Shown piece by piece: positions 39,350-62,681 of a stretch of DNA of 64,000 bases. The notes below the pieces were generated by a model. That model was not told the DNA's origin. It searched no databases and saw only the letters and a list, made by a program, of their open reading frames with translations. The first letter of the stretch is position 1. Each line of letters starts with the position of its first letter. The stretch comes from an uncultured delta proteobacterium. Its GTDB lineage: Bacteria; Desulfobacterota; Binatia; HRBIN30; BPIQ01. Made by a program: the position numbers and the translations under genes. The stretch is taken from NCBI GenBank assembly GCA_963761335.1, contig CAVXGR010000018.1, positions 544,001 to 608,000 on the forward strand, given 5' to 3'.

Positions 39350-40354
39350 TCACAGCCCGTACCACTTTCGCCGCAGGGGCGTCAACTTGGGGTTTGTCGT
39401 CCGGGTGCTGGTCGTCTGCGCCCGACGCGCCGGGTAGGCTCCCGGGTGACCCTCCCGAAAGCGGCGGCCCAGTGGGTCGTCGCGTCGCGGCTGAGCGATT
39501 CCGGTCGCCCGGCTGGTCGGGGTCATCCGTTCGCCGGCGCCATTGATCCACGATCTCTCGGAGCTCTGCAGCTCGCGCAGCAGCTGCGGCCGCTGGCGCA
39601 GAAGGGCGATTGCCTCGGGCTGCGGAAGAGCGCGGTGGAGCAGGGCTCGGTACCTCTGCAGACGGGCGCGCCACTGTGCCGGCGAGAGGGTGGTCCTGGT
39701 CGGAGGCGGGCAGGGCACCTGCTGGCCGAGCAGCATGATCATCAAACCCTCGTAGTTGAAAGCCGGGTCGCCCGTCGCACAGCGACGATTGCCGCTTTCG
39801 ACCCACGGGCCACAGGTGGAGTAGTGATCGAGCAGGGGCTGCAGGCCGGATACATCCACCGAAGCGCGACAGTCTCGCCAGAAGCGCGTCTCGCTCTTGC
39901 GGTTGAACTTGTAATGCACGCTGAGAAACCACCGCAGGTAGTCCCAGTGGGCGCCGAGCGCCTCGTTGGCGAAGGAGCGGTCGGACGGCCGATTTCCCGA
40001 CTGCAGCCCGCCGATGAGATAGGCGATCTCGACAATGACCATGTGGAGGGCGGTGGACTCGAGCGGCTCGACGAACCCGTAGGCATTGCCCAGGGCAACC
40101 GTGTTGCCCTTCCAGAAATCCCGGTGGCGGCCGCTGCGGAACTGCGGGGGGACCCGATAGGAGAATGAGTACCTGCCCGGCAGACCCCAATCGAACTTGA
40201 TGCCCAGTTTCCAGGTGGGCCGCACCTCGCGGTACAGGTCGACGATATCGATGCCGAGCTGCCGGTGTAGAAATGGCGGCATCAGGGTGGTGGTTGCTTC
40301 GCCGACGCCGACAACCTTTCGAGCCTCAAGATCTCGACGGTCCTCCGGCATCAT
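39350..40354 (-). pseudogene. Internally deleted tryptophan-halogenase-family (flavin-dependent) gene
   Basis: VGVGEAT, TWKLGIKFDW, FRSGRH, VALGNAYGFVEPLESTAL present; no GxGxxG, no WxWxIP; central region absent. Confidence 0.8.
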
Positions 40355-41816
40355 GAATCCCTTCACTGATGTCTCGAGGTGCTGTGGTTGCCCAGCGCGC
40401 CAGGATTTCGGCCGTGCGCGAGTCGGTCTCGTTCGCCAGGAGCTCGAACAGTCGCCGCGAGACGGCCATGTGCTCCTTGCACTCGAATGAATGCGGGCGC
40501 TGCCCGAAGAGATCTCCCCGGGTGGCAAAGCTGTGCACGGGGTCGATGCCGCAGAAGGGCTTGTTCCAGCAGTCGGCGCACATCGGCTGCGCGTCGAGGA
40601 GGGAAGCCGCGGCAATGGCGCGCACGGTGGGGTGCTGCAGCACCTCGGCCAGGGTCAGGGTGCGCACATCGCCGATCGCGAAGATCGGATCGCCGGTGAA
40701 GTCGATCAGCCGTGCCTCCTCGCAGGGAAAGACGCGTCCATCGGCATCGTAGGCGAGCTCGGACGTTCCAGCTGCGGCTGGAGACTGGATGTCGCACACT
40801 CCAGGGTCTTCCGAGGTGAGGATGCGAGTCGCGAAGATCCGTGCGGTACCCTCGACGATGTCGACGCCCTGGCGGTTGAGCTCGAGGATGTAATCCAGGG
40901 CGCGCCGATAGAAGTCGAGGTACTCCTCAGCGGAGTAGCCGATCTCCGACCAGACGTCGCCGGAGATGCCGAGAGGATTGAGAGGTCGCAGGTAGATCGC
41001 GCCGAGTCCCCGGGCCACGTACTCGTCCACCAGCCCTTGCGGTTCCTCGAGGGTTCGCCGAGTTACATTGGCGCGCGCCTCGATCGCCCGGATGCGAGAA
41101 TCCTGGCCGCTCTCCACAGACTGGCGCTGAAAGTAATCGATCCAGCGAATCACCTCGGCATGGGTGCTGCCGCCGATCCACCGGCGATTCCAATCGTGAA
41201 TGCCCGCCGGTCCGTCGAGATCCGTCCGCACGCGGACGTCGTTGGCGATCAGCCACTCGGCAGACTCCGCGGTCATGGCGGTGAGATTGGTCACCAGTCG
41301 GAAGGCCAGCGTCTTGCCGGCCGTCTGCATGTTGCGCGAGCGCGCCAGATCCAGCAGATGGCGCAGCACGTCGAAGCTCGCCAGGGGCTCGCCGTCGCCG
41401 GCGCGGAGCTCGAAGGTGATCGACGGCGAAGTGCTCTGCAGAGCTACCTCGGCCACTTGCGCGGCAGTCTCCGGGCTCATGTCGACGGCTGTTCCTTCGC
41501 CGCTCCGGCGAAGGTTGACGACGTGCAGATGCGGCCCGCGACCGACGTGGCGATTGCGCCGCGCCACCCGGTCGGCGAAGGCGTCGAGGTCGAGCCCGTC
41601 GCGCAGGAAGCCCATGCGCTTGAACTCCTCAAACCGGGAATGACCTTCGGCAACGCGTCCGGCGAGCAGCTCATCCAGCTCCGCCTCGCTCAGAAGCGCC
41701 CAGTCGCCGGCGTCGTTGGTGACCAGGATCTTGCCGGCGACGCGTCCCCAGCGGAAGAATCCGAGCCGGTCCTCAGCGAGATCCTGGCGCGACAGCGTCA
41801 GGCTGCGTCGGTCCAC
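40326..41816 (-). CDS. HxsB-like paralog lacking the radical-SAM CxxxCxxC motif
   Basis: Colinear with 55771..57321 (LVTNDAGDW, GPHLH, DMSPE, LVTNL, DLDGP, LDYILELNRQG, CADCWNKPFCG), but the HRCNHGCQYC segment is missing. Confidence 0.85.
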   Translation of the reverse strand: MDRRSLTLSRQDLAEDRLGFFRWGRVAGKILVTNDAGDWALLSEAELDELLAGRVAEGHSRFEEFKRMGFLRDGLDLDAFADRVARRNRHVGRGPHLHVVNLRRSGEGTAVDMSPETAAQVAEVALQSTSPSITFELRAGDGEPLASFDVLRHLLDLARSRNMQTAGKTLAFRLVTNLTAMTAESAEWLIANDVRVRTDLDGPAGIHDWNRRWIGGSTHAEVIRWIDYFQRQSVESGQDSRIRAIEARANVTRRTLEEPQGLVDEYVARGLGAIYLRPLNPLGISGDVWSEIGYSAEEYLDFYRRALDYILELNRQGVDIVEGTARIFATRILTSEDPGVCDIQSPAAAGTSELAYDADGRVFPCEEARLIDFTGDPIFAIGDVRTLTLAEVLQHPTVRAIAAASLLDAQPMCADCWNKPFCGIDPVHSFATRGDLFGQRPHSFECKEHMAVSRRLFELLANETDSRTAEILARWATTAPRDISEGIHDAGGPSRS

Positions 41817-42058
41817 TAACTCTCCTCCGCCAGAGCCGCCTGACGCATTCGCGAAATGGTCTCGTGCAAGACGTGATTGCAGAAGGCGTTGGCTACCATC
41901 TCGGCATCATCTTCGGCAACGCCGGAGATGATGGTCTCGATGGCGTCGGCGGCGGCAGTCACTTCGATCTGGGCGTGCTCGGCGTAGGCCGCCGCGGCGG
42001 CGTCGACGGCCTCAGGCAGGTATAGCGATCGGTCGAAGGCGATGCGCTTGGTCATCAC
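41816..42058 (-). CDS. HxsD-like small protein
   Basis: FDRSLYLPEAVDAAAAAY...NAFCNHVL; paralog of 55524..55778. Confidence 0.75.
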   Translation of the reverse strand: MMTKRIAFDRSLYLPEAVDAAAAAYAEHAQIEVTAAADAIETIISGVAEDDAEMVANAFCNHVLHETISRMRQAALAEES

Positions 42059-42540
42059 TCCGTTTCCGGATCCTTCTTCGGCCCGGGCTCCTCGGTGGCG
42101 CCGCCGTGCTTCTCCTCCCATGGGACCATGATCTCCAGCGGGTCCTCGAGCAGCTCTTCGGCCTCCAGCTCGGCCAGCAGGTCGTCGACGGAGGGTGCCG
42201 AGGCGGCGGCGCGAAGCGCAGCCGCCGTGTAGTAGTCGCGAATATGCGTGGTCGCCTGGGAGAGGCGCAGGCGGGTGGCCTGCGACAGAAGCTCGTTGGC
42301 GAACTCACCGGCGAGGGCGTCCAGCTCCGCGGGTGTTGCAGGGGTCCGCGAGGTCAGCCTCGCGGTCACCACTTGCGGCTTCGGCCTCGACAGATAGACG
42401 AAGCACTTCTCGACGAACAGGTAGCAGGCGCCGTAGATGGCGTCGAGAGGATAGATGCTCTCGTCGACCTCGAAGGAGATCTGGTCAGGTCCCAGAGAGA
42501 AGCCGAGGCGAGACTGCTGCTCGGCGTCGGTCGCGGACAC
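42055..42540 (-). CDS. hxsD: His-Xaa-Ser system protein HxsD
   Basis: VDESIYPLDAIYGACYLF...LAGEFANELL...T..IRD; C-terminal LEDPLEIMVPWEEK; paralog of 55072..55527. Confidence 0.8.
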   Translation of the reverse strand: MSATDAEQQSRLGFSLGPDQISFEVDESIYPLDAIYGACYLFVEKCFVYLSRPKPQVVTARLTSRTPATPAELDALAGEFANELLSQATRLRLSQATTHIRDYYTAAALRAAASAPSVDDLLAELEAEELLEDPLEIMVPWEEKHGGATEEPGPKKDPETE

Positions 42541-42544: not shown

Positions 42545-43201
42545 CTACCTCAACCTCCGATCCACGGGACCCGAGAACAGGCGCAGGCGCTCCGACTGCG
42601 GCATCAGCGCCGCCATAAGAGGCCTGTTCTTCCACTTGGTTTCGTTGCGGGCGAGCACGTGGGCCAAGCGCGCAACCGCTTGGGCCAATCCTTCTTCCGT
42701 GGGCAGGTCTCCTCGTCCGCCATTCATGACCACGAGATCGAGACCCTTCGTGTGGACCAAGCCCTGCGGACGCCCATCGTTGCGGCAGAGATGGACGCGG
42801 TGTTCTCGACCCCGCGGATTCACCAGGGTCAGCACGCAGGTGCCGTCAACGACTCCGGTCAGGCCTGCGACGCGCCACCCATATGCCACCAATGATCCCT
42901 TGGCGAGTGGCCGAAGCAGCTCCCAGGGAGGCGGCGCGCCGAGGGTGCTCGCCGGCCCGGCGTCGACGACAGCGGGCTGCGGATCTACGGCCTTTCGAGG
43001 GTCGCCGACTGGCTCTGGAGCTGGAACGATCGCCTCCGTGGCGGCGGTCGCCGCTTGGATGGATCCCTCTTGATCCAGGGCAGAGCCGGTGACTGGCTCG
43101 GCGCGGCGTGCTGAGGCAAAGCTGGTCCGTGCCAGCCCCGCGGCCCACATCATGGCCGTACCGGCTGCGAGCCTTCCGACCAAATCACGTCGCGACAGCA
43201 T
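42545..43201 (-). CDS. Tat-signal hypothetical protein (paralog of 45956..46543)
   Basis: MLSRRDLVGRLAAG; GWRVAGL...CRNDGRPQGLVHT..DLVVMNGGRGDLPTEEGLAQAV. Confidence 0.75.
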   Translation of the reverse strand: MLSRRDLVGRLAAGTAMMWAAGLARTSFASARRAEPVTGSALDQEGSIQAATAATEAIVPAPEPVGDPRKAVDPQPAVVDAGPASTLGAPPPWELLRPLAKGSLVAYGWRVAGLTGVVDGTCVLTLVNPRGREHRVHLCRNDGRPQGLVHTKGLDLVVMNGGRGDLPTEEGLAQAVARLAHVLARNETKWKNRPLMAALMPQSERLRLFSGPVDRRLR

Positions 43202-45325: not shown

Positions 45326-45468
45326 CGTCCACCTCCGCCGTGGGTTGTGAAGCGAGCTCGAAGAGATGCGCACCGCAACGGAATCCGCGGCTGATCTTCC
45401 CCCGTTTGGCCGAAATAACGTCATCAAGGCGCCTCCGCTAGCGCTGCGGTGCTGTTTGCACCAGGGTG

Positions 45469-45858: not shown

Positions 45859-45955
45859 TGTCCCTCCTTCACCGTGGGCGCATCATCGACGCGATACGCC
45901 CCCCTATCTCGATTCGTAGCCACAACCGACCCCGGCCATTGCGCCGTGGAGACCC

Positions 45956-46543: not shown

Positions 46544-46912
46544 GCAGTTTTCCCCCCCTACAACTAGACAGGAACTAAAGGTTCGTAACGGGCGTATCAC
46601 AAGGCCGACGGACGAGTAAAGAAAAATTTTCGCGCGACCCCGGGAATTCTGTCGTCCGTCGAGAATGCGCCTCGGCGTGGCGCACCGCTGTCCGCCGGCC
46701 CTTTGCGTTCGAAAAAAATCTGGCGTCTCTTCAGGTGTCGTGATACGCGTTTCCTCTGACACGAGACGAATCTCTTACGTCTGTTGACAAGTGCGCGATA
46801 GAAAGGGATTCAGCAGGGGGGGCAAGAATCGCGCGAAGGACGGCGTACGGCTCTCGGCCGGCGACCGCGAACGAAGCAGCAGGACTGATCCCATTCGTGC
46901 AGAGAATCTTCT
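46544..46912. promoter_or_regulatory. Divergent intergenic/promoter region between the two Hxs arms
   Basis: Relatively AT-rich, between divergent operons; TTGACA at 46784, but no convincing -10 at canonical spacing. Confidence 0.4.
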
Positions 46913-48769
46913 TTGATGCACACTGATCCCTCGATCGACGCGGTTGGTGGTCTGACCCAGTTGAGCGGCGAGGCCGCTCGACGTCTGCTCTCACCCAGCC
47001 GCGGGGCGGAGGTGGATCTGCGCCTCTCGTTGGTGCGCCAGCGCGCCATTCTGCCCTGGCGGTTTGTGCCGCCCGATGCTCGCGACGATCTGCGGTCGAG
47101 CGAGGTGATCGACGCTGCCCGGGCGGCCGGTGCACATGCGGGAGCCTTTCTCATTGGCGGCGGGGATCCCCTGCGGCGTCCCGATCTGTGGGATCTGCTG
47201 GCGGAGTTGGTGCGCCTCAGGCCGAATGATCTCGGACTCTGCATTTCCGGTCGCGGGCTGACGGCGCCGGTGATCGAGCGCCTGCGCGCCGCCGGCGTGC
47301 GGCGGCTGCACGTCCCCTTTCACTGCGCTCGGCAAGATGCCCACGATTGGTTGGTCGGCCAGCCGGGCGCCTTGAAGATGGCTCATCGCGCCATCCGCGC
47401 CGCTGCCGAAGCGGAGCTGCCGGTGGTCGCCGAGATCGTCCTGACGCGACCGACGGTGTTGCATCTGGCCGAGACGGTCGAGGTGCTGTCCCGCATCGGC
47501 GCCGGCGCCGTCTGTGTCCGGCGGCTGGCGGCGGAGGACACCGACGGCACCGCCTTCGTGCCGCTCTCTCCGCGCCTGTCCTTGGTGGGCGAGAGCCTCG
47601 AGCAGGCGGCGGCGGTGGCCCTGCGGCGCCGCCTACGGCTGCGTCTGCGCGACCTGCCCCTGTGTGTCGCGCCGCGGCTCCGGCGACTGTTCGCCGCCGC
47701 CGAGAGCGAGGCATGGGTGATGGCCGACGGCACCCTGAGCCGGCGCGCCGCGGCGGCACTGGGGTGCCCCGACTGCCCCGGACCTCCGCGCTGCGCCGGC
47801 GCGCCGAGCGACTACACGGCGCGCTTCGGCTGGGAGGAGTTCGCCGACGTGAGCGTCGCCGCGGCGCGGCTCAGAGAGAACGTCGAGGAGCAGCGGGCGC
47901 CGCATCTGTCGGCACCGATGGTCTTCGCCTGGCGCGGTCCACATCGAGTGCGCTGCGACGCCTGCGGCGACGGGGCGGAGGCGCAGTCCGGATACGAATC
48001 GACGCGAGCGGTGCGCGCCAGGCTGGTGCAGGCGGCGCGCTATCGGCCGTCGCTGCTGCGCTTGGTGGGGGCGGATCTTCTCGCCCACCCGCAGGCGGCG
48101 GCGCTGATCTTCGATGCGGTGCGGCTGTTCCCGCGCGTCGAGGTCGTCGGGGAGGCCAGCGCCGTGGTCGAATGGTCCGATCTCGACCTGCGCCGCTTGA
48201 AGGACCTGAAGCGCGTCGACGTCCCATTGTATGGGCCCGATGCGGCGACCCACGACTCCCACTGCGGTATTCCCGGAGCCTTCGCTGCGATGCTGCGCGG
48301 CGTCCAGCGTCTGGGCGCCCAGGAGATCCGGGTTGGCGCCTACGCCGTCCTTCATGACGCGCATCTGCTCGAGCGGTTCGCCGCAGCTTGGGACGCCGGT
48401 AGCTTGCCGGGCGAGCCCCGCTTTCGCCTCTCGGCCCGCGGCGCGTCTCTCGATGAGCTGGCGGAGGCGGCGCGCCGTTTGCCGAGCGGCCCGGCGCGCG
48501 CCGCGGTGGCGGCGCTCTTGCCCCGCTGCCTGTGGGACGATTCCGCCGCCGGCAGCGGCGGTCAGGTCCTGTTGGTTCAACGGCCGGAGCCGCAGCGGGT
48601 CGTCCACTGTGGCAGGAGCACTTCCTATCATTCATGCGGATCGGATCCGATCGGGGATTTTGAGACATGCCGTGAGGGCGCCGGTGCGTGCGCCGGCTCG
48701 GGATGTGTCGGAACCGCTGTCGGGTGGCGGACTGCGGCGAGGTCAGAGCGATGGAACGTGAGGATCTGA
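46913..48769 (+). CDS. Tandem degenerate HxsC-like radical-SAM-fold protein (no complete CxxxCxxC)
   Basis: Domain 1: GGGDPLRRPDL, HDWLVGQPGA, DLPLC, CPDC....RCAG. Domain 2: RCDAC, VGADLLAHP, LYGPDAATHDSHCGIPGAF, LPRC. Confidence 0.7.
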   Translation: MMHTDPSIDAVGGLTQLSGEAARRLLSPSRGAEVDLRLSLVRQRAILPWRFVPPDARDDLRSSEVIDAARAAGAHAGAFLIGGGDPLRRPDLWDLLAELVRLRPNDLGLCISGRGLTAPVIERLRAAGVRRLHVPFHCARQDAHDWLVGQPGALKMAHRAIRAAAEAELPVVAEIVLTRPTVLHLAETVEVLSRIGAGAVCVRRLAAEDTDGTAFVPLSPRLSLVGESLEQAAAVALRRRLRLRLRDLPLCVAPRLRRLFAAAESEAWVMADGTLSRRAAAALGCPDCPGPPRCAGAPSDYTARFGWEEFADVSVAAARLRENVEEQRAPHLSAPMVFAWRGPHRVRCDACGDGAEAQSGYESTRAVRARLVQAARYRPSLLRLVGADLLAHPQAAALIFDAVRLFPRVEVVGEASAVVEWSDLDLRRLKDLKRVDVPLYGPDAATHDSHCGIPGAFAAMLRGVQRLGAQEIRVGAYAVLHDAHLLERFAAAWDAGSLPGEPRFRLSARGASLDELAEAARRLPSGPARAAVAALLPRCLWDDSAAGSGGQVLLVQRPEPQRVVHCGRSTSYHSCGSDPIGDFETCREGAGACAGSGCVGTAVGWRTAARSERWNVRI

Positions 48770-50653: not shown

Positions 50654-51691
50654 ATGGCGAATCTGGGCTATCTGCAGCTCACCCGCAATTGCTATCAGAA
50701 GTGCCAGTTCTGTAGTAATCCGCCGACCGGGGTGCATCTCAACGAGGAGGAGATGCGCGCCAACATCGACCGCCTGGTCGAGCTCGGCTACGACGGCGTG
50801 ATCCTCACCGGCGGCGAGCCGAGCATCTCGGAGCTGCTCTTGCCGGCGCTGGCCTACGCCCGCGAGCGCGACCTCTTCAGCCGCATGATCACCAACGGTC
50901 AGAGGCTCGCCGACCGGGACTTCTTCCGCCGCTGCGTCGACGCCGGGCTGACCCACATCCACGTGTCCCTGCACAGCTATCGGCGCGAGGTCCACGACTT
51001 CATCACCCAGTACCGCGGCGCCTGGGATCTCCTGGTGGAGTGTCTGAGCCACGTGCCGGAGATGGGCATCACCTGCGACATCAACACGGTGATCAACGTG
51101 TACAACTGCGATCACCTCCACGAGAACGTGCAGTGGATCTGCGAGAACTTCCCGTTCATCCGGCACTTCGTGTGGAACAACATGGACCCCGACGGCAATC
51201 GCGCCGAGGAGAATCCCGACTGCATTCCCCGGCACTACGAGTTCCAGGTGTCGCTGGAGCGCGCCATGGAGTACCTGGTGAGCAGCGGGCGGACCTTCCG
51301 CGCCGAGCGCGTGCCGCTGTGCTACATGCGCCACTTCGCCTGGGCCTCCACCGAGGCCCGCAAGATCATCAAGGAGGAGGAGCGCTGCATCAAGTTCCTC
51401 GATGCCAAGGGCTTCATCCACCAGAAGGAGTTTCTGCACGGCAAGGGCACCGCCTGCGACGTCTGTCGCTTCGACACGATCTGCGCGGGCATGTTCTCGA
51501 TGGCCAAGACCTACGACGAGCGCGAGCTGTCGCCGATCTTCGACGATCCGCTCGATGTGATCGTCCAGGTGCTGGGACGGAGGCCGTCCCCGGACCTGCT
51601 CGAGAGACTGCAGAAGCGGCGCGGCCGGCGCTCGAAGACGGAGCAGCCGTCGGTGGAAAAGAGGGAACAGGCGCTCTCGCGGGCGCTGTAG
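50654..51691 (+). CDS. HxsC-like radical SAM protein
   Basis: NCYQKCQFC, TGGEP, ITNG, VSLHS; VPLCYM; CDVCRFDTICAG. Confidence 0.85.
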   Translation: MANLGYLQLTRNCYQKCQFCSNPPTGVHLNEEEMRANIDRLVELGYDGVILTGGEPSISELLLPALAYARERDLFSRMITNGQRLADRDFFRRCVDAGLTHIHVSLHSYRREVHDFITQYRGAWDLLVECLSHVPEMGITCDINTVINVYNCDHLHENVQWICENFPFIRHFVWNNMDPDGNRAEENPDCIPRHYEFQVSLERAMEYLVSSGRTFRAERVPLCYMRHFAWASTEARKIIKEEERCIKFLDAKGFIHQKEFLHGKGTACDVCRFDTICAGMFSMAKTYDERELSPIFDDPLDVIVQVLGRRPSPDLLERLQKRRGRRSKTEQPSVEKREQALSRAL

Positions 51692-54009: not shown

Positions 54010-54942
54010 ATGGAGACGATCCAGCTGGGCGGGCAGTGGTTCGACTACGCCGACGTCCTCATCGACGTCATGTTCGGCTACGCCTGCAACGTCCAGTGCG
54101 ACTACTGCTCGATCACCGACGACATGCGCCGGGAGAACATGACGACGGCGTCGGTCATCGCGCAGCTCGCCGAGGCGCGGGCGCGCGGCGCCACCCGGGT
54201 CGCCTTTGGCGGCGGCGAGCCGACCATCCGGCGGAGCCTGTTGCCGCTGGCGCGCTGGTGCCGCGATCGCGGCTATCGCTCGATCAAGGTCGCCTCCAAC
54301 GGGCTCATGTACTCGTATCGCTCCTTCGCGGAGGAGGCGAGCGAGGCGGGCATCAACTCGTTCCACATCTCCTTCATGGCGCACACGCCCGAGCTCTACG
54401 AGAAGATCATGGGAAAGCCGGGGGCGCTGTCGCTGGTGACCGAGGGGCTCCGCAACCTGATCGCCCTGGGCCACAAGCCGGTCGGCGACCTGATCATCAA
54501 GAGCGACACCTGGATGCATCTCGCGGACATCGTCGAGCACTGGGCCGCTCTCGGTGTCGAGACCTTCAACCTGTGGTTGGTGTCGCTGTCGGATCGCAAC
54601 CGCGACAATCTCGACTCGCTGTTGCCGGTCAGCACCATGCGCGAGGGGATCGGCGCTGCCTTCGAGCGCGGCCGGAGCCTCGGGGTCACGGTTCTGTCGC
54701 GCCACATTCCGCGCTGCATGCTCCCCGGGTACGAGGATCAGGTCGCCGATCTGCGCGACGACAAGGTGCTGGTGGTGACGCCGCGCACCTCTTTCGCACT
54801 CTGGGAATCGAAGATCTCTCCCAACACCTACGCCGAGAAGTGCCAGGGCTGCCGCCACCAGCACGGCGTCTGCCTCGGGCTGCGCCAGGACTACCTGGAG
54901 CGCTACGGCGACGCCGAGGTGCAGCCGGAGTACGCGCAATGA
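54010..54942 (+). CDS. HxsC-like radical SAM protein
   Basis: ACNVQCDYC, GGGEPTIR, SNG; IPRCM; CQGCRHQHGVCLG. Confidence 0.85.
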   Translation: METIQLGGQWFDYADVLIDVMFGYACNVQCDYCSITDDMRRENMTTASVIAQLAEARARGATRVAFGGGEPTIRRSLLPLARWCRDRGYRSIKVASNGLMYSYRSFAEEASEAGINSFHISFMAHTPELYEKIMGKPGALSLVTEGLRNLIALGHKPVGDLIIKSDTWMHLADIVEHWAALGVETFNLWLVSLSDRNRDNLDSLLPVSTMREGIGAAFERGRSLGVTVLSRHIPRCMLPGYEDQVADLRDDKVLVVTPRTSFALWESKISPNTYAEKCQGCRHQHGVCLGLRQDYLERYGDAEVQPEYAQ

Positions 54943-54943
54943 T

Positions 54944-55021: not shown

Positions 55022-55071
55022 CTTCCACTTGATGAACGCGCAGCAATGCGGCATCCCCTGACCAGAAGCTC

Positions 55072-55527
55072 ATGACTCACACCCGAATAGAAACCCTCGA
55101 CGCGCAGGGGTCGACGCTGACCCTGTCGCTCGACATCGGCCTGTATCCGCGCGACGTGCTCTACGCCGCCGCCTACGTGTTCCTCGACCGCGCCTACGTG
55201 CTCCTCGACCGCGATGGCTCGCGTTTCCTCGTGCACCTGCGGGGCAAGCAGCTCCTCGAAGAGGAGGCTCTGCGGGCCATGGCCGGCGAGTTCGAGAACG
55301 AGCTCCTCGCCCAGGCGCTGCGGCAGCGGGTGACCCGCACCAACCAGAGACTCATCGAGGACATCGCCTCCCTGGCGATCGCCGGTGCCGCCGGCGCCGC
55401 AGTGCACGGCGACGTCGCGTCCGACGACTCCGGGCTGATCGATGTCGACGCCCCCGGCGAGGACGGCTTTCTCGACGACCCCCTGGGCATTGCCGAGCCC
55501 TGGGAGTCCAAGAAGAAGGACGGGTGA
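55072..55527 (+). CDS. hxsD: His-Xaa-Ser system protein HxsD
   Basis: LDIGLYPRDVLYAAAYVFLDRAYV...AGEFENELL.Q.LR; FLDDPLGIAEPWE. Confidence 0.85.
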   Translation: MTHTRIETLDAQGSTLTLSLDIGLYPRDVLYAAAYVFLDRAYVLLDRDGSRFLVHLRGKQLLEEEALRAMAGEFENELLAQALRQRVTRTNQRLIEDIASLAIAGAAGAAVHGDVASDDSGLIDVDAPGEDGFLDDPLGIAEPWESKKKDG

Positions 55528-55778
55528 GCGCGATGTCTGCCGGCACCGCCGAGCCCGCCACCGTGAAGCTGCACTGCGCCCTGTACATGCGCGAGGCGAT
55601 CACGGACGCGGCGGCGACCTTTGCCGACTTCGCTTCGTTCGTCCTCCGCCTCGACGGCGATCACTTTCTCGTCGAGGTCAGCGACATCGATGCCGAGGTC
55701 GAGGGCGATGTGGTGGCGGAGTTCTGCAACTTCGCCCTGGCGCACACGGCGATGCGCCGCAAGAGCCAGCATGCTTGA
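55524..55778 (+). CDS. HxsD-like small protein
   Basis: LY..EAI..AA..F...AEFCNFAL; paralog of 41816..42058. Confidence 0.75.
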   Translation: MSAMSAGTAEPATVKLHCALYMREAITDAAATFADFASFVLRLDGDHFLVEVSDIDAEVEGDVVAEFCNFALAHTAMRRKSQHA

Positions 55779-57321
55779 CGCCGGGGCCCGCATCGAGAAC
55801 GGCAGCCGCGATCTGCTGCCGCGCGGCCGCCAGGTCGACTTCACCAGGCTCTCCAGCCCCGACCGCTGGCAGCCGGAGCTCGCCGTTCCCTTCAATCAGC
55901 GGATGATCGGCGAGAAGGTGTTGATCAGCAACGATCTCGGCGATTGGTTGCTGCTCTCCCAGGAGGAGTTCCGCGATCTCCTCGAAGGCCGACCACAGCC
56001 GGGGGAGCCTCTCTACGAGAAGCTGGGGCGCGCCAACTTCATCGCCGCCGAGATCGACGTCCATGCCCAGGCAGAGCGCTGGCGGCGCAAGAAGCAGTAC
56101 CTGTTTCAGGGGCCGACGCTGCACGCCTTCGTGCTGACGCATCGCTGCAACCACGGATGCCAGTACTGCCACAGCTCGATCGTCGGCATGGAGCGCACCG
56201 ACACGGACATGTCGATGGAGGTTGCCGAGCGCGCCGTCGATATGGCCTTCCAGACCACTGCCTGGGCGCTGACCATCGAGTTCCAGGGCGGTGAGCCGAC
56301 GGCCAACTGGGACGTGCTCCGCCATGTCGTCGAGTACGCACGCGAGAAGAACATCACCGCCGGGAAGGTCCTTTCCTTCGCGCTGGTGACCAACCTCTCG
56401 CTCATGGACGACGAGAAGCTCGACTATCTCCTCGACCGCCGCGTGCAGATCTGCACCAGCCTCGACGGTCCCGCCGACCTGCACAACAAGATCCGCGTCT
56501 TCAAGGGCGGCAACAGCCACGAGATGGTCCTCGGCTGGATGAAGAAGATCAACCAGCGCTACGCCGACATGGGCCTGGACGTGAACCATTACCGGGTCGA
56601 GGCCCTGCCGACGATCACCCGTCCCAGCCTGACGCGCTGGAGGGACATCGTCGACCAGTTCGTCGCAGCCGGCTGCCGCGCCGTCTTCCTGCGCAAGCTG
56701 GACCCATTCGGATTCGCGGCGCGCAGCGCCAAGACGCTGGGCTACTCCATGGACGAGTTCCTGGAGTTCTACGCCAATGCCGTGGACTACATCATCGAGC
56801 TCAATCGCCAGGGCGTGCAGGTGATGGAGCGGCACGCGGCGATCATGCTCAACAAGATTCTCGCCGACGAAGAGCCCAACTATCTCGACCTGCGCATCCC
56901 CGGCGGCGCCTGCATCGGCCAGCTCGGCTACGCGCCGGACGGCAGCATCTACTCCTCCGACGAGGGCCGCTTCGTCGCCTCCATGGGCGACGACATGTTC
57001 AGGATCGGCAGCGTGTACGACAGCTACCACGAGCTGATGACCAGCGGCGCCACCCGCGCCCTGGTGATGGCGGGCCTCAACGACGGCCAGCCGGACTGCG
57101 TCAGCTGCGTCTACAAGCCGTGGTGCGGCCAGCAGGTCGAGTACAACTACAAGACCCAGGGCAGTCTGCACGGCCACATGCGCGACTCGACCTGGTGCAA
57201 GAAGCACAAGTCGATCTTCGACTACCTCATGCACAAGCTCGAGTCGGCCGACGAGCGGGACATGGAGATGTTCCGCCTGTGGACGACCAACCGCACCCTG
57301 GAGCACTTCATCATCGAATAG
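55771..57321 (+). CDS. hxsB: His-Xaa-Ser system radical SAM maturase HxsB
   Basis: GPTLHAFVLTHRCNHGCQYC, DMS, IEFQGGEP, ICTSLDGP..LHNKIR, DGSIYSSDEGR, CVSCVYKPWCG. Confidence 0.9.
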   Translation: MLDAGARIENGSRDLLPRGRQVDFTRLSSPDRWQPELAVPFNQRMIGEKVLISNDLGDWLLLSQEEFRDLLEGRPQPGEPLYEKLGRANFIAAEIDVHAQAERWRRKKQYLFQGPTLHAFVLTHRCNHGCQYCHSSIVGMERTDTDMSMEVAERAVDMAFQTTAWALTIEFQGGEPTANWDVLRHVVEYAREKNITAGKVLSFALVTNLSLMDDEKLDYLLDRRVQICTSLDGPADLHNKIRVFKGGNSHEMVLGWMKKINQRYADMGLDVNHYRVEALPTITRPSLTRWRDIVDQFVAAGCRAVFLRKLDPFGFAARSAKTLGYSMDEFLEFYANAVDYIIELNRQGVQVMERHAAIMLNKILADEEPNYLDLRIPGGACIGQLGYAPDGSIYSSDEGRFVASMGDDMFRIGSVYDSYHELMTSGATRALVMAGLNDGQPDCVSCVYKPWCGQQVEYNYKTQGSLHGHMRDSTWCKKHKSIFDYLMHKLESADERDMEMFRLWTTNRTLEHFIIE

Positions 57322-57529: not shown

Positions 57530-58429
57530 TCAGTGTTGCGCGAACTGCTCGAGAATGCGCTCGCGCGGCAGGGCCTTTGCCTTCATGTGCTCCTGTCGTT
57601 CGCGCACCAGGCTCTCGTAGGTCGGCGGCGGCTCGGGATCGCGGTAGAGCACCCCGGTGTAGAGCTCCTTGCCGTAGGTCTGCGCCAGCGCCATCGCCTT
57701 CACCCGGTGGAGCGGCTTGTAGCCGATCTTGGCGAGCGATTTCATCCCCTCGCGATGCGCCTTGAGCTGCCGGTCGGGCTCACCGAAGGTGACGCAGGGC
57801 GACTGCACGTTGACGAAGGCGAAGCCCGGGAAGCGGATCGCCTCCTCGATGATCGCCGCCAGCCCCGGCATGTCGGCGGGTGTCCCCTGGGCCACGAAGT
57901 GGGCACCGTAGCCGAGAACGTAGAGGAGCGGGTTCACCGGATCCTCGAGACTGCCCTCCGGAGAGGTGACCGTGTGGCGACCGCGGGCCGAGGTCGGCGA
58001 CAGCTGCCCCTTGGTGAGGCCGTACGTCTGGTTGTCCATGACGATGTAGGTGAGGTCGATGTTGCGGCGAATCACGTGCGGCAGATGTCCGCCGCCGATC
58101 GAGAAGCCGTCGCCGTCGCCGCCGGCGACCAGGACCAGTAGATCGGGGTTGGCCAGCTTGATGCCCTGGGCGATCGGCAGGGCGCGCCCGTGCACGCTGT
58201 TGAAGCCGTAGGCGGTGGTGTATCCGGGAATGCGGCTCGAGCAGCCGATGCCGGAGACGAAGGCAATCTCGTGAGGCGGCCTGCCGATGTGGGCCAGGGC
58301 GCGGTTCAGGGCCGTGAGCACCCCGAAATCTCCACAGCCCGGGCACCAGATCGGCTTGAGCTCGCTCTTGAAGTCCGACGGGTCGAAGGCCGGGGTCGAG
58401 GGGCAGCTGAGGGCAGTGTTCACGTGCAT
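57530..58429 (-). CDS. korB: 2-oxoacid:ferredoxin oxidoreductase subunit beta
   Basis: WCPGCGDF, SGIGCSSR, HGRALP, GGDGD, YGLTKGQ.SPT. Confidence 0.92.
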   Translation of the reverse strand: MHVNTALSCPSTPAFDPSDFKSELKPIWCPGCGDFGVLTALNRALAHIGRPPHEIAFVSGIGCSSRIPGYTTAYGFNSVHGRALPIAQGIKLANPDLLVLVAGGDGDGFSIGGGHLPHVIRRNIDLTYIVMDNQTYGLTKGQLSPTSARGRHTVTSPEGSLEDPVNPLLYVLGYGAHFVAQGTPADMPGLAAIIEEAIRFPGFAFVNVQSPCVTFGEPDRQLKAHREGMKSLAKIGYKPLHRVKAMALAQTYGKELYTGVLYRDPEPPPTYESLVRERQEHMKAKALPRERILEQFAQH

Positions 58430-58439
58430 GGTGTCTCCG

Positions 58440-60230
58440 TCATTCGGCGGCTTGCAGCGCGTCCTCATGGCGGCGCTGCAGGCGCAGGGCGAGCTCGCCG
58501 AGGTGCTCGACGATCTCGGTGGGCTGGAAGGGGATGGCGCCGCTGCGCGCCAACGACTCGATTCCGGGGGGCAGGTCGACGTACATGCGCATGAGGCGGA
58601 AGAGCTGCCCCTGATACGACTGCTCGACCACCAGGCCGGCGTGCACGCCGGTGAGAAACTCGAGATAGGTCTCCTCGACCACCGGGTAGAGGAGCAGCGG
58701 TGTGAGCAGCTTGACGCGCAGGCCGGCATCCCGGGCGAGACGCAGCGCCTCGCGGCAGACGCCCGCGGTGCTGCCCCAGCTGATCAGCGCCAGGGCGGCG
58801 CCGGGATCGCCTTCGATGCGGAAGAGGTCGCTCTGGGCGCGCAGCGCATCGAACTTGTGAAAGCGCTTCTCGGTCATGCGCGCGTGCACCGCACCGCTGG
58901 CGGTGGGCGCGCCGGCGTCGTTGTGCTCGATGCCGGCGCCCTGGTAGTTGCCGCCGAGCATGCCCGGGTGGCTGATGGGGCTCACCCCGTCGTCGGTGAA
59001 GCGGAAGCGCCGGTAGCTCTGCAGCTCGGCGTCGGTCGGCTCGCGGCGCTCGAGCCGCGCGAACTGGGTCGTGTCGATCGGGTCGAGAGACTCCTTGCGC
59101 TGTGCGATCTCCTGATCGGAGAGGATGACCACCGGGGTCTGAAAGCGCTCGGCGACGTTGAAGGCGTGCACGGTCACCGCGAAGGTGTCGGCGACACAGG
59201 TCGGCGCCAGCACCGGGCGCAGCACGTCGCCGTGCGCGGAGAACACCGCCTGGAACAGGTCCGCCTGCTCCGACTTGGTCGGCATCCCCGTCGACGGGCC
59301 GCCGCGCTGCACGTCGACGACCACCAAGGGCAGCTCGGCGATGCTCGCCAGGCCGAGCATCTCGGTTTTCAGTGACATGCCGGGGCCGGAGGTCGCGGTC
59401 ATCGACTTCTTCCCGGCGAACGACGCCCCCAGGGCCGCGCCGACGCCGGCGATCTCGTCCTCGGCCTGCAGCAGAGCGCCGCCGTACTTCCAGATCTCGC
59501 GGCTGAGGAACTGCATGATCTCGGTGGAAGGCGTGATCGGGTAGCCGCCGAAGAACTCGCAGCCGGCGAACAGCGCCGCCGCGGCGCACATCTCGTTGCC
59601 GTCCACCAGGAGCTTGCCGCCCGCCTTGCCGCTGGCCGGGGCGAGAGCGCGGGCGCGCTGCAGTGGGTGATCGGTGGCGTACTCGACGCCGGCGGCGAAG
59701 GCGTCCTCGGCTCCCTGGAGCACGGCCTGGCTCTTCTTGGCGAAGCGCTTGTGCATGCCGCGCAGCAGCGCCTCTCTGGCAATGCCGAACCAGCCGGCGA
59801 GCAGGCCGAGGACGACGATGTTCTTGGCGCGGTCGCCGCCCGAGGTGCGCCGCGCCATCTCGGCGATCGGCACGCTGCACACCTCGCTCGGCGACACCCC
59901 GATGAGCGGGATCTCGTCCGGCGGAATTCCGCAGCCGGCGTCGTAGATCACCACCGTCTTGCCGCCGACCGGCAGCTCGGCCCCGAACTTCATGAAGTCG
60001 TCCCAGTTGAGGGCGACGGCGACGTCCAGCGTGCCCGCCGAGTTGAAGATCGGCTCGTTCGAGATCCGCACCCGGCAGGAGGACTCGCCACCGCGGATCT
60101 GCGAGCCGAACGCCTTGGCCATGATCACGTGGTAGCCTTCGTAGGCGGCCGCCGAGGTGAGAGACTCGCCGGCAGACACGATGCCGTCTCCACCTGAGCC
60201 GGCCATCCCAATCATCAGGTCACTGTCCAT
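58440..60230 (-). CDS. korA: 2-oxoacid:acceptor oxidoreductase subunit alpha
   Basis: IRGGES, GYPITPSTEI, QAEDEI, TATSGPG, QRGGPSTGMPTK.EQ.DL. Confidence 0.92.
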   Translation of the reverse strand: MDSDLMIGMAGSGGDGIVSAGESLTSAAAYEGYHVIMAKAFGSQIRGGESSCRVRISNEPIFNSAGTLDVAVALNWDDFMKFGAELPVGGKTVVIYDAGCGIPPDEIPLIGVSPSEVCSVPIAEMARRTSGGDRAKNIVVLGLLAGWFGIAREALLRGMHKRFAKKSQAVLQGAEDAFAAGVEYATDHPLQRARALAPASGKAGGKLLVDGNEMCAAAALFAGCEFFGGYPITPSTEIMQFLSREIWKYGGALLQAEDEIAGVGAALGASFAGKKSMTATSGPGMSLKTEMLGLASIAELPLVVVDVQRGGPSTGMPTKSEQADLFQAVFSAHGDVLRPVLAPTCVADTFAVTVHAFNVAERFQTPVVILSDQEIAQRKESLDPIDTTQFARLERREPTDAELQSYRRFRFTDDGVSPISHPGMLGGNYQGAGIEHNDAGAPTASGAVHARMTEKRFHKFDALRAQSDLFRIEGDPGAALALISWGSTAGVCREALRLARDAGLRVKLLTPLLLYPVVEETYLEFLTGVHAGLVVEQSYQGQLFRLMRMYVDLPPGIESLARSGAIPFQPTEIVEHLGELALRLQRRHEDALQAAE

Positions 60231-60410
60231 TCTGCTCCTGTTCCTCGATTAAACGAGAAGAAGAGGGAGCAAAGCACGTGCCCGCTAACCCCACGGTCGA
60301 TGCGGCAACTCACGCCGGCAAAGATTCCCACCCTTGGGAATAATGTGCCGCCGAGCCCCCGAAAACCGGGAGCCCCACCTGCCCCTAATGGCCTGAGCAC
60401 AAAGGCGTAT

Positions 60411-61208
60411 CTACAGCAGCCGCGTCTTGAAGAAGTCGATGATCTCGTCCACGGCCTGGCGCGTCGGCTGGCCCTGCTCGTCGATCAGATGCAGGGTGAC
60501 GACGCTGTGCGGGTTCTTCATCGGGGCGTTGGGGTTGGCGGCGCTGTCGGGGAGGACGCGGGGCTGGAAGCGGTCGCCGAGCGCCTGCTGGTAGGCGGCG
60601 AAGCGCGCCGCCCGGCAGAAGCTGTCGCCCTCGAAGCGATAGGCGAGGACGGTGAGATCCTCGCGGTCGAGCCGTTCCTTGACCGCCTTCAGCTCCTCCG
60701 GGGCGATGTGCATGCCGGAGGCTTTCGCCAACGGCAGGGAGGGCTGCGACAGGACCGGCGCCCGCACCGCCGGCTCGAGCATCATCGACAGGGCGAAGTT
60801 GCCGGTGAAGCACATGCCGATGGCGCCGACCCCCTGGCCGCCGCAGAGCGGATGGGCACGCGCCGCCAGCGCCCGCAGCCACTGGGTGACCGGGCTCGAG
60901 GCGTTGGCGGCGAAGGCGCGGAACTCGGCGCTGATGCATCCCTTGATGATCGAGCTGGCTCCGTAGAGCGTCGACACCGGCCGTCCCGGCTGGCCGAACA
61001 GGTTCGGCATCCACACAGTGAAGCCGGCGTCGCGGACCCAGCGCGCGAAGCGGGCCACCTGCGGCGAAATCCCGGGCATCTCGGTCATGACGATGACCGC
61101 GGGACCGCTCCCGGCGACGAACACCAGCTTGGTCTCGCCGTTGAGAGTGATCTGCCGGTGCTCGAAATCGGCGAGCGGGTCGGTCTTCGAGAGATCGGTC
61201 TCTGCCAT
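60411..61208 (-). CDS. Dienelactone hydrolase family protein
   Basis: EMPGI, GAIGMCFTG nucleophile motif, HSVVT. Confidence 0.85.
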   Translation of the reverse strand: MAETDLSKTDPLADFEHRQITLNGETKLVFVAGSGPAVIVMTEMPGISPQVARFARWVRDAGFTVWMPNLFGQPGRPVSTLYGASSIIKGCISAEFRAFAANASSPVTQWLRALAARAHPLCGGQGVGAIGMCFTGNFALSMMLEPAVRAPVLSQPSLPLAKASGMHIAPEELKAVKERLDREDLTVLAYRFEGDSFCRAARFAAYQQALGDRFQPRVLPDSAANPNAPMKNPHSVVTLHLIDEQGQPTRQAVDEIIDFFKTRLL

Positions 61209-61352
61209 CGATTGGGCCCTCCGCGGGCGACCGTAGCCAACTTTGCGGCGGTGCGCCATGATGGGAAAACTTGGTGGCCAGGCTGGCCGCGGTCCCAGGC
61301 AAACGCGGGTGGGTGTGCGAATCGCGCACGGCACCGCTATGATGGCGCCTCA

Positions 61353-62681
61353 ATGAATGCGCCTCGCACAAGCCCCGACTCCGGCAGCGGCCGAGGACTG
61401 GTGCTGGAAGAGCCGGAAGCTGAGGCCCGCGCCCTCAAGGCGGCGTACGTGCACTATCTGGCCGACTGCTGCCAGCGCTTCCTCGCCGTCGCCGGGGAGC
61501 TACCTCCCGAGCTGCGCCCGGCGCATGCGGCAATCGCGGCTCTGGTGCGGCAGGTGCTTCCACAGGGACGTCAGGCGATGCTCAACTGCTTCGCTTCACC
61601 GGCGGTGGGCACGGCGCTGCAGTGCGCCGAGCTGCGGCGCGACCTCGACGACTTCCGCGTCCGCATCGACAAGGCGGCGGCGGAGATGATGCCGCACCTG
61701 CTGCTGGAGATGGCGCTGCGAGGGCTCATCCCCCCGGGACAGTCTCTTCTCTGGGAGCACGGCGCGCCGTCGCTGGCTTCGCTCGCCGTCGGCGGCGAGC
61801 TCGTCCCGCCCGCCGCGGCCACCGGCCTGCGCTTCTCGGCCAGCCACGTCGCCGCGCTCGCCGGCGGCGCCGAGCTGGCGCGGTTGCCCCTGGAGCGCGA
61901 GGCGATGCGACAGACCTTGGCCGAGAACGCCGCCGGCGGCTTCCGCTTCGAGCGCCGTTTCCGCCGCCTCGGGAAGGTCACCCATTTCGCCACCGTCGAC
62001 CACAACCCCATCGCCGCCTTCGAGGCGCATCCCGACAAGGCGGGAAATCACATCGACCTCGGCGGTCGACCTGTGGGGGAGTGGACCGAGATGCTCGACC
62101 GCTGCTTTGCCCTGGTCGAGCGCTACCTGCCCGGCGAGCTCGCCGAGATGAGGATCATGCTCCGCGAGGTCATCCCGGTCGGCTACGACCCGCACCGCCA
62201 TCTGTCCGCCTCCTATCGCGAGGCCGTCGGCATCGTCTATCTGACGCTTCACCCGAGCGTCATGATCATGACCGAGGCTGTGGTGCACGAGTTCCAGCAC
62301 AACAAGTTCAACGTCTCGAGCTACGGAGCCGAGTACCTGGCGAACGCCTTCCATCCTCTCTACAAGAGCCCGGTGCGCCCCGACCCGCGACCGCTGTGGG
62401 GAATCCTCCTGGCGGTACACGCCTTTCTCCCCGTCGCCGAGCTCTATCGGCGCATGCGCGACGGCGGTGACCCGCTGGCGGCGCATCCCGATTTCGAGCG
62501 GCGCATGTCGGAGATCGATCTCAAGAACCACGAGGGCATGGAGATGCTCCGCGCCCACGCGCAGCTCACCGCCGCCGGCGGCGCCATGTTTGCCGAGCTG
62601 GAGAGCCTCGAGCGCCGCCATCTGGCCGAGCGCGCCGCCCGCGGCCTCGACAGCACGCCGACCGACGCCCACCTCGGATGA
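61353..62681 (+). CDS. HExxH-motif peptide-modifying protein (alphaKG-HExxH-like)
   Basis: SASYREAVGIVYL, EAVVHEFQHNKFN, YKSPVRPDPRPLWGILLAVHAF. Confidence 0.88.
   Translation: MNAPRTSPDSGSGRGLVLEEPEAEARALKAAYVHYLADCCQRFLAVAGELPPELRPAHAAIAALVRQVLPQGRQAMLNCFASPAVGTALQCAELRRDLDDFRVRIDKAAAEMMPHLLLEMALRGLIPPGQSLLWEHGAPSLASLAVGGELVPPAAATGLRFSASHVAALAGGAELARLPLEREAMRQTLAENAAGGFRFERRFRRLGKVTHFATVDHNPIAAFEAHPDKAGNHIDLGGRPVGEWTEMLDRCFALVERYLPGELAEMRIMLREVIPVGYDPHRHLSASYREAVGIVYLTLHPSVMIMTEAVVHEFQHNKFNVSSYGAEYLANAFHPLYKSPVRPDPRPLWGILLAVHAFLPVAELYRRMRDGGDPLAAHPDFERRMSEIDLKNHEGMEMLRAHAQLTAAGGAMFAELESLERRHLAERAARGLDSTPTDAHLG

Follow-up and report, generated by a model that had tools for sequence, protein, structure and literature searches.

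An HxsA4-type peptide locus of uncultured Binatia that combines active and cluster-less radical SAM proteins

Introduction

The canonical HXS (His-Xaa-Ser) system consists of four genes, arranged as HxsD-HxsB-HxsC-HxsA, and joins an HxS-repeat substrate to its maturation by radical S-adenosylmethionine (rSAM) proteins. In E. coli it has been reported as an anti-phage system which blocks DNA entry (Li et al., Nat Commun 2026; PMC13128918). The same study reports that mutations of the first-cluster cysteines of HxsB abolish both HxsA processing and defence, that HxsC binds HxsD, and that one HxS repeat of HxsA acquires a change of +8 Da ('+C -4H') (PMC13128918). Here we analyse a relative of this system that numbers about 20 genes and is built around a precursor of the HxsA4 family, encoded in a stretch of 64,000 nucleotides (nt) from an uncultured soil bacterium of the Binatia group (GenBank assembly GCA_963761335.1, contig CAVXGR010000018.1, positions 544,001 to 608,000); this whole stretch is called the window throughout. 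An earlier note on the window had described the chemistry and product of Hxs loci as poorly known, a view now partly overtaken by the anti-phage role, periplasmic effector and +8 Da modification described for E. coli (PMC13128918).

The canonical HXS families are held in NCBIfam as TIGR03976-03979, and the same collection has models for a type 4 Hxs system, namely HxsA4 (NF038313), an HxsD-like protein (NF038315) and HxsC4 (NF038332). Repeated aromatic-X-X triplets are also found in the cores of triceptides. The triceptide enzyme MicB, an rSAM enzyme, is reported to make a cyclophane between His5 and Ser7 on an H-A-S motif (PMC12912966), and an alpha-ketoglutarate (aKG)-HExxH enzyme is described as hydroxylating His and Asp only on a pre-formed cyclophane (PMC12636437).

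The gene content of the locus studied here is conserved as a unit in one taxonomic order of uncultured Binatia, and its rSAM pseudo-enzymes are under relaxed yet clear purifying selection. We consider it likely that the locus works as a single system, in which several cytoplasmic enzymes mature the HxsA4 peptide.

Gene content and conservation of the locus

The window has a GC content of ~68%, so most of its long open reading frames (ORFs) are spurious; genes were picked by GC content at third codon positions (GC3) and by family scans (Pfam, NCBIfam), and every start and stop codon was checked. The genes of the locus (Table 1) form two strings that diverge from a 369-nt region, leftwards on the minus strand and rightwards on the plus strand, in agreement with the two divergent operons that the earlier note had placed around 46.5-46.9 kb. 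No sigma-70-like promoter or terminator was found in a consensus scan of 45200-47000. As first noted, each arm carries hxsD, hxsD-like and hxsB in the same order (judged by NCBIfam matches), and the left arm also holds the precursor gene and two genes for proteins with a twin-arginine translocation (Tat) signal. From 42540 down to 40326, the gene ends of the left triplet overlap or nearly abut. The proposed membership in the Hxs families is borne out by profile searches, in which HxsA4, both HxsD proteins, both HxsD-like proteins and the right-arm HxsB (HxsB_R) pass their cut-offs. Both HxsB genes that a TIGR03978 profile search found in the 6.26-Mb assembly are the two in this locus. Counted by the CxxxCxxC motif, the system has six intact rSAM domains spread over five genes (rs647, rs345, both halves of rs770, rs311 and HxsB_R) and three degenerate ones (both rSAM-like halves of rs618 and the left-arm HxsB, HxsB_L), exactly the numbers given originally.

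Relatives of the locus are found in the same order. HxsB scores above the cut-off in 18 of 40 genomes (17 of 39 without the unpublished genome G029), and 16 of these 18 have two or more copies, typically one at ~500 bits and the other at 300-350. Presence is uniform within genera: all genomes in g6 (6/6) and g20 (2/2), against 0/5 in g4 and 0/2 in each of g5, g7, g8 and g17. Alignment of the pseudo-rSAM protein rs618 in a named species collection gave 31 loci. All 25 that are 50-65% identical lie in metagenome-assembled genomes (MAGs) of uncultured bacteria labelled Candidatus Binatia, Deltaproteobacteria, Polyangiaceae, Thermodesulfobacteriota or bacterium; five further loci, 36-44% identical, come from Myxococcota-labelled and (doubtfully) Rickettsiales-labelled MAGs of 71-75% GC, and the 31st match, at 23% identity, is a second stretch of one Binatia-type contig. 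The Rickettsiales label of L075-L077 looks doubtful; L076 has 71-75% GC with a reduced HxsA4 system, and L075 and L077 have similar gene sets. At E 1e-30 the pseudo-rSAM was found in none of 300 other genomes of the phylum, an even sample that sets a weak bound with only 9 genomes of the same class. At least 120 metagenome clusters match rs770 at 75-87% identity and the first Tat protein has 938 homologues, which together point to a widespread trait of an uncultured group, abundant in soil metagenomes. Five DNA sequencing runs are listed as matching the locus (four soil, one marsh), the best with 0.34 of the sampled words and the others with 0.06-0.07.

The proteins of the window were mapped to relatives' loci by tblastn, and 28 contigs were tallied after removal of duplicates. 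All 20 loci whose flanks suffice contain the block rs618-rs647-rs345-rs770-rs311. Divergently upstream of it, 16 of the 20 have a Tat gene and 14 have hxsA4, and several of the misses fall at contig ends. The second triplet varies in place: in 8 of 20 loci it is immediately upstream of rs618 and co-directional with it, as part of a single long operon, and elsewhere it is found on another contig (G005), 126 kb off (G019) or ~25 kb off with its own precursor copy (G021). Relatives thus keep both triplets, the five rSAM genes, the Tat proteins and the HExxH gene as one set, while the divergent two-arm layout, one of several arrangements, is not conserved, contrary to what the earlier note would require.

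Table 1. Features of the HxsA4 locus in window coordinates.
Feature	Position	Strand	Evidence or remark
Flavin-dependent (Trp-halogenase family) enzyme remnant	39350..40354	-	Partial PF04820; without GxGxxG and WxWxIP
HxsB_L, degenerate, 496 amino acids (aa)	40326..41816	-	TIGR03978 351.7 bits, under cut-off 370; no CxxxCxxC
hxsD-like left	41816..42058	-	NF038315 58.1 bits vs cut-off 41
hxsD left	42055..42540	-	TIGR03976 50.5 bits vs cut-off 50
Tat-signal protein B, 218 aa, paralogue of A	42545..43201	-	60% identity to protein A
Secreted Cys-rich protein (orf734-type), 684 aa	43271..45325	-	Sec-type signal; PF00200 39.4 bits
hxsA4 precursor, 129 aa	45469..45858	-	NF038313 143.7 bits vs cut-off 55; match covers leader and repeats
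Tat-signal protein A, 195 aa	45956..46543	-	Twin-arginine signal with SRRxFxGK, variable linker, conserved ~110-aa C-domain
Divergent intergenic region, Tat protein A to first rSAM-family gene	46544..46912	.	369 nt; GC lower than surroundings
rs618, double pseudo-rSAM, 618 aa	46913..48769	+	Two rSAM-like halves; PF04055 53.5 bits from profile position 30
rs647, HxsC-like rSAM, 626 aa, intact CxxxCxxC	48751..50631	+	~300-aa C-terminal extension of unknown family
rs345, HxsC-like rSAM, 345 aa, intact CxxxCxxC	50654..51691	+	TIGR03977 97.4 bits vs cut-off 267.9
rs770 fusion, 770 aa, two intact motifs	51695..54007	+	Class-B-like rSAM and HxsC4-like rSAM
rs311, HxsC4-like rSAM, 310 aa, intact CxxxCxxC	54010..54942	+	NF038332 86.2 bits vs cut-off 500
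hxsD right	55072..55527	+	TIGR03976 55.2 bits vs cut-off 50
hxsD-like right	55524..55778	+	NF038315 59.4 bits vs cut-off 41
HxsB_R, 516 aa, intact CxxxCxxC, SPASM	55771..57321	+	TIGR03978 506 bits vs cut-off 370
Insert outside the system: korB, korA (2-oxoacid:ferredoxin oxidoreductase beta, alpha), dienelactone-hydrolase-family gene	57530..61259	-	Family scans
aKG-HExxH-type peptide hydroxylase, 442 aa, HEFQH	61353..62681	+	TIGR04267 81.6 bits vs cut-off 40

Degenerate radical SAM proteins and their maintenance

The division into active enzymes and pseudo-enzymes that the earlier note had drawn is real and is kept in relatives. CxxxCxxC is absent from all 8 rs618 orthologues and from 10 of 12 HxsB_L orthologues, and present in HxsB_R (11/11), rs647 (9/9), rs345 (10/10), rs770 (10/10, both motifs) and rs311 (10/10). 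In a wider set, 15 of 19 L-type HxsB proteins lack the motif; these have a deletion of ~14 residues across the loop and keep a GGE-type motif, and at least 17 of the 19 retain all four SPASM cysteines at the C-terminus. HxsB_L aligns with the TIGR03978 model over its full length and is 36% identical to HxsB_R. Conservation within the degenerate group is highest in the N-terminal domain (64%), opposite to the pattern in HxsB_R, and all 15 cluster-less copies have full-length open frames. Since E. coli mutants in the first-cluster cysteines lose function (PMC13128918), the loop-deleted HxsB cannot be a radical SAM catalyst.

Ratios of nonsynonymous to synonymous substitution (dN/dS; Nei-Gojobori, 12 sequences per family) are 0.345 for HxsB_L (0.25-0.28 among the closest pairs), 0.273 for rs618 and 0.139-0.207 for the active genes (rs345 0.139, HxsB_R 0.167), to be read with dS partly saturated and with strong codon bias at 68% GC. 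In a quick maximum-likelihood tree of HxsB with a midpoint root and Shimodaira-Hasegawa-like approximate likelihood ratio test (SH-aLRT) support, one branch (support 99) has the 15 degenerate copies all to one side, and their sisters are two intact L-type copies, from G038 and G026. This quick, midpoint-rooted tree is consistent with a single old loss of the HxsB_L cluster. The single intact HxsB of the reduced loci found outside Binatia groups with the L lineage (support 100), not with HxsB_R. Because the gene order of that reduced system (Tat protein, HxsD, HxsD-like, HxsB, HxsA4) is that of the left arm, the comparison suggests that the left module may be the older core, with the root of the tree not established.

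Two observations on individual loci belong here. One contig (L044; G037:C194) holds two cluster-less HxsB_L copies on the same strand, ~2.6 kb apart. On L034/L048 and L069 several system genes are split into adjacent frames, which suggests assembly indel errors rather than real pseudogenes. The apparently broken HxsB_L of L034 was accordingly set aside as evidence of decay, as rs647 is likewise split on that contig and many genes are on L069.

The range given in the earlier note began with the leftmost gene of Table 1, which is not an Hxs gene but a halogenase-family remnant. Flavin-dependent halogenases carry two motifs, GxGxxG (for flavin adenine dinucleotide) and WxWxIP. The gene beside the degenerate HxsB is full-length with both motifs in L034, L040 and L052, and divergent in L060. 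The full-length form bears a weak resemblance to QhpG (31 bits vs cut-off 240). A link between this halogenase-family enzyme and the terminal Trp of the precursor is possible.

The precursor and its exported partners

HxsA4 comprises a leader of ~56 aa followed by HMS-HAS-(HGS)22-W, a 73-residue core with 24 HxS triplets and a terminal Trp. The leader is without a hydrophobic signal peptide, and the protein has no peptidoglycan-binding domain or Pfam match. It is encoded by the one HxS-run ORF of the window. Precursors of relatives have the same leader (62-81% identity over 18 sequences), the HMSHAS start and the final Trp, with 15 to 24 triplets each; the lowest count belongs to a copy cut by the locus end, and repeat collapse in assembly could also lower counts. 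Trp is the last residue in all precursors that are complete at the C-terminus. Two to three hxsA4 copies per locus or genome are seen in L061, L062, L064 and L070 and in G021 (L030-L032), and an orf734-like gene lies downstream of most copies that have sufficient flank, with a Tat-protein gene also upstream of some.

In 13 of 13 judgeable loci, an orf734-like gene lies at most 600 nt downstream of the hxsA4 gene that stands divergently upstream of the rSAM block. It encodes the secreted Cys-rich protein, which is laid out as an N-domain, a disintegrin-like Cys-rich module, a long Pro/Thr linker and a C-domain. A second secreted protein with a disintegrin module is encoded at 6565-8280 (minus strand), without an adjoining HxS-run ORF.

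Tat motifs follow the consensus S/T-R-R-x-F-L-K-type, then a hydrophobic stretch. Both Tat proteins, A and B, are predicted to conform to it, with the putative signals SRRAFVGK and SRRDLVGR, and the RR pair is kept in at least 90% of the rows of a 20-sequence alignment. The gene for protein B precedes that for the left HxsD in relatives. Among the 938 homologues of protein A, the 120 listed lack Pfam domains and carry no source name other than 'hypothetical protein'; Pfam and NCBIfam scans of protein A itself gave no match. The confident model of its ~110-aa domain has no convincing structural relative in a Foldseek search of the PDB (best E 0.3) or in a protein atlas (best score 0.82), and a wide structural search reached a best Z of 5.5, with MucB/RseB C-domains, BPI and Mdm12 tied in the noise. 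A predicted complex of the Tat-protein C-domain with the HxsA4 leader scored 0.01, which does not speak for or against binding.

The radical SAM block and the HExxH hydroxylase

The earlier note had described the right arm as holding five HxsC-like or B12 rSAM genes; the five genes are there, while the B12 part is unproven. The first, rs618, overlaps the start of rs647 by 19 nt, and the HxsC-like enzymes are distant paralogues of its N-terminal half (E 1e-10 to 1e-4). Of the whole set, rs345 is the most conserved gene (82-88% identity in relatives; HxsB_R 81-92%). In rs770, the N-terminal half is modelled as a Rossmann-type N-domain and a barrel (predicted local distance difference test score 71). 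Its closest solved sequence relative is AprD4 (E 3e-6), and by fold AprD4 is again best (5.9e-14), followed by TsrM, MgmA, TokK, MiaB, CysS and OxsB. AprD4 is not known to use cobalamin. The B12-binding family PF02310 has no match in rs770 at E 0.1, nor in the 120 listed orthologues. The modelled architecture of this half appears class-B-like, with B12 use unproven. The fifth rSAM gene had been taken as ORF 54036-55061, which is an Arg-rich artefact in the wrong frame by GC3 lying over the true gene at 54010-54942.

The HExxH hydroxylase belongs to the Hxs gene set. It lies at most 260 nt after hxsB_R in 11 of 15 loci and within ~2.1 kb of it in two more, and was not found within 4.4 kb of hxsB_R in one of the 15. 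In the window the distance is ~4 kb because of the inserted korAB and hydrolase genes; this insert was not found in the 13 other loci that have both flanking genes and is seen in this genome only, so the HExxH gene must have its own promoter here. PDB sequence matches of the protein include ChlH (E 5.5e-4). The earlier note was right that a HExxH enzyme lies nearby, but its 793-aa ORF is over-extended, the 5' third overlapping the minus-strand dienelactone-hydrolase gene.

Other genes in the window

An ORF at 62919-63998 (plus strand), which runs off the end of the window, has an SpvB-type N-terminal domain (PF03534, 72 bits) as at the starts of Tc-toxin- or Rhs-like proteins. A second rSAM-rich cluster occupies 8570-30679, with rSAM genes at 8570-9544, 13288-15168, 20563-22494, 24832-26469 (SPASM) and 26473-27960, of which those at 13288-15168 and 26473-27960 carry a true B12-binding domain (PF02310). 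Their neighbours encode glycosyltransferases, a DegT-type aminotransferase, an epimerase and a lysylphosphatidylglycerol-synthase-type membrane protein. By this gene content, the cluster looks like one for sugar or lipid tailoring.

Discussion

The published precedents of HxS maturation, of the H-A-S crosslink and of cyclophane-dependent HExxH enzymes lead us to expect iterative radical crosslinking or modification of the triplets, tailoring by the extra rSAM domains and then beta-hydroxylation. The poly-cyclophane, methylated or hydroxylated, metal-binding peptide that the earlier note had proposed stays a prediction, with such precedent for the His-Ser cyclophane and for the hydroxylation. 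HxsB_R and the four HxsC-like domains, aided by HxsD and HxsD-like proteins, would repeatedly radical-modify the His-Gly-Ser triplets, the most likely products being three-residue His-to-Ser side-chain cyclophane crosslinks and/or the '+C -4H' (+8 Da) change. The class-B-like domain of rs770 may add a further change, possibly methylation, and the HExxH enzyme would then hydroxylate beta-carbons of the crosslinked peptide. For rs618 and the HxsB without a cluster we propose non-catalytic roles, in binding the peptide or keeping the complex together. Once mature, the peptide would act outside the cytoplasm, alongside the secreted Cys-rich protein and the proteins exported by Tat. We lean towards a stable envelope or periplasmic role for the His-rich modified peptide, with phage defence and metal binding as the main candidates, both of them guesses.

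Several results weigh against this account. All five HxsC candidates fall below the HxsC equivalog cut-off (TIGR03977, 267.9), the best at 97.4, and against HxsC4 (NF038332, 500) the best score is 119.9 (the rs770 C-terminal half), with the others at 96.4, 86.2 and 52.9. HxsB_R scores ~100 bits with the thioether- and QhpD-type maturases and ~52 with the cyclophane families, all far below cut-offs. A cyclophane would appear as -2 Da, but the change reported on HxsA in E. coli is +8 Da (PMC13128918). The pseudo-enzymes evolve faster than their active neighbours by dN/dS, a ratio itself limited by saturation and codon bias, and the halogenase gene next to HxsB_L is a remnant in this genome, so that some decay of the left arm is conceivable. 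Export of the HxsA4 product is a guess, because HxsA4 is without a signal peptide. A search of the gaps and flanks in relatives turned up no conserved protease or exporter (the genes seen there are unrelated and non-recurring, for a sulfate permease, a helix-turn-helix protein and a tetratricopeptide-repeat protein, with a PMT_2-type glycosyltransferase in two loci), and none of the sequencing runs listed as matching the locus is an RNA run.

Among the alternatives, a role like that of canonical HXS fares best, although we think it somewhat unlikely: a periplasmic effector would block phage DNA entry and the extra enzymes would elaborate that effector. HxsB, HxsD and the HxS-repeat substrate are homologous to those of the E. 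coli system that blocks DNA entry, and, as is proposed there for HxsA, DNA binding at low pH is conceivable for the run of 24 histidines (PMC13128918). Predicted Tat-directed and secreted proteins are also encoded beside the precursor. However, the signal peptide and peptidoglycan-binding domain that HxsA4 lacks are both described as essential for HxsA, and published HXS systems are given as 99.7% in Pseudomonadota and 99.8% four-gene (PMC13128918). PADLOC yields only weak, generic similarity of the rSAM proteins to viperins and there are no defence-type neighbours, while the presence of the system is uniform by genus (6/6 and 2/2 vs 0/5 and 0/2) and not patchy by strain.

Metal binding, which we regard as unlikely, would make the product a metallophore or a metal buffer, periplasmic or secreted, for Cu, Ni or Zn, whose crosslinks pre-organise the imidazoles. 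Tat export is typical of cofactor-bound or complexed proteins, the composition of 24 His in a 73-residue core suits such a role, and stable genus-wide conservation suits a physiological one. Copper-binding His-crosslinked ribosomal peptides have been described (PMC10206099). Against it, family scans of the conserved set show no metal transporter, TonB-dependent receptor or metal regulator, and no feature ties the locus to a metal; the copper monooxygenase subunit A family PF02461 had no match in 41 genomes (0/41), though control genomes likewise gave none.

The observations can also be joined into one reading of catalytic hand-over, which taken whole we hold to be distinctly unlikely. The left module (Tat protein, HxsD, HxsD-like, HxsB, HxsA4) would be ancestral and a divergent second HxsB triplet would have arisen; the ancestral HxsB would then have lost its cluster once and been kept very long as a leader-binding scaffold feeding the six-domain rSAM line and the HExxH enzyme. 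The product would be polymer-like, a chain with as many as 24 hydroxylated His-Ser cyclophanes, exported by hitch-hiking on the adjoining Tat-signal protein and acting with the Cys-rich partner as an envelope barrier or metal store.

If instead the left-arm triplet (Tat protein B, HxsD, HxsD-like, cluster-less HxsB and halogenase remnant) were a functionless, decaying duplicate, the right arm alone would mature the peptide. The deleted cluster loop, the score of HxsB_L under its family cut-off, a dN/dS about twice that of HxsB_R with long tree branches, the neighbouring remnant and the varying position of the module would all fit. Decay is nevertheless very unlikely. The 15 cluster-less copies stand behind one supported branch of the quick, midpoint-rooted tree with their frames at full length, and their dN/dS of 0.25-0.35 is far under 1. 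The SPASM cysteines and N-terminal domain are conserved; HxsD, HxsD-like and Tat protein B of this arm are intact, the first two above their cut-offs. The module heads the active enzymes' operon in 8 of 20 loci, and a second HxsB copy is kept by 16 of the 18 HxsB-positive relatives. That two independent Hxs systems, each with its own substrate, stand back to back by chance is hardly credible, for although the modules are far apart in several relatives, with a precursor copy beside each in some (G021), and the two HxsB proteins share just 36% identity, the window has one HxS-run ORF, both HxsB genes of the genome are in this locus, all precursor copies of relatives share leader and core, the left module is without an active rSAM enzyme in most genomes, and the modules are joined in one operon in 8 of 20 loci. 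A single maturation system for HxsA4, with active enzymes and retained pseudo-enzymes, is the reading that we prefer.

Comparison with known systems

The names 'HxsA4' and 'HxsC4' appear in no paper of the searched literature, although supplementary files could hold variant HXS architectures, and the Hxs papers of substance found there are the 2026 anti-phage study and its preprint. The earlier note had called the system undescribed, which holds for print but not for NCBIfam, where models of HxsA4 and HxsD-like already exist. The locus adds an architecture that extends across a Binatia order, two triplets of which one has an HxsB with its cluster deleted (such copies sharing one supported branch), a double pseudo-rSAM, and a constant association of every precursor with a Tat protein and with a secreted protein rich in Cys. 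A function for canonical HXS is a recent finding, and the chemistry behind its +8 Da on one triplet has yet to be solved. With a 24-triplet substrate, a clean leader and separable enzymes, the action of each Hxs-type rSAM on His-Xaa-Ser becomes directly testable, and two natural cases of rSAM pseudo-enzymes under selection could show what non-catalytic paralogues are used for in assembly lines of peptides that ribosomes synthesise and that are modified after translation (RiPPs).

Canonical HXS and this locus share an HxS-repeat substrate, rSAM maturation and a presumed site of action outside the cytoplasm, and the HxsB_R (with CxxxCxxC) and HxsD proteins found here pass the TIGR03978 and TIGR03976 cut-offs. 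The differences are many. There are ~17 conserved genes here against 4, and 24 triplets against 5. The substrate has neither signal peptide nor peptidoglycan-binding domain and scores 20.7 bits with the HxsA model TIGR03979 (cut-off 121.65), and no protein reaches the HxsC cut-off. There are two triplets, one with a cluster-less HxsB, and the four-gene D-B-C-A order is absent. The double pseudo-rSAM, class-B-like rSAM, HExxH enzyme, Tat proteins and secreted Cys-rich partner are all extra, and the locus is in Binatia, not Pseudomonadota.

As in the type 4 Hxs system of NCBIfam, the precursor passes HxsA4 NF038313 and both HxsD-like proteins pass NF038315, whereas the rSAM proteins fall far below HxsC4 NF038332 and the models are silent on pseudo-enzymes, Tat proteins, HExxH and the doubled triplet. 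With triceptides the locus shares repeated aromatic-X-X triplets in the core (24 His-Xaa-Ser) and the company of a SPASM rSAM with an aKG-HExxH enzyme (as ChlB/ChlH). It has many more rSAM enzymes and repeats than the triceptide pathways compared; of the cyclophane-forming rSAM/SPASM families tested (YhhB, AmcB, GrrM and FxsB models), YhhB gives HxsB_R 52.4 bits (cut-off 445) and AmcB 53.1 (cut-off 425).

Also among the closest known systems are the reduced HxsA4 modules of high-GC, Myxococcota-like MAGs (L073-L077). These have a single triplet with an intact HxsB (456 bits) and no 770-aa fusion, and their pseudo-rSAM is 36-44% identical to rs618. They nonetheless resemble the present locus in a HExxH gene facing the pseudo-rSAM and HxsC-like genes, and in the order Tat protein, HxsD, HxsD-like, HxsB, HxsA4 that makes up its left arm.

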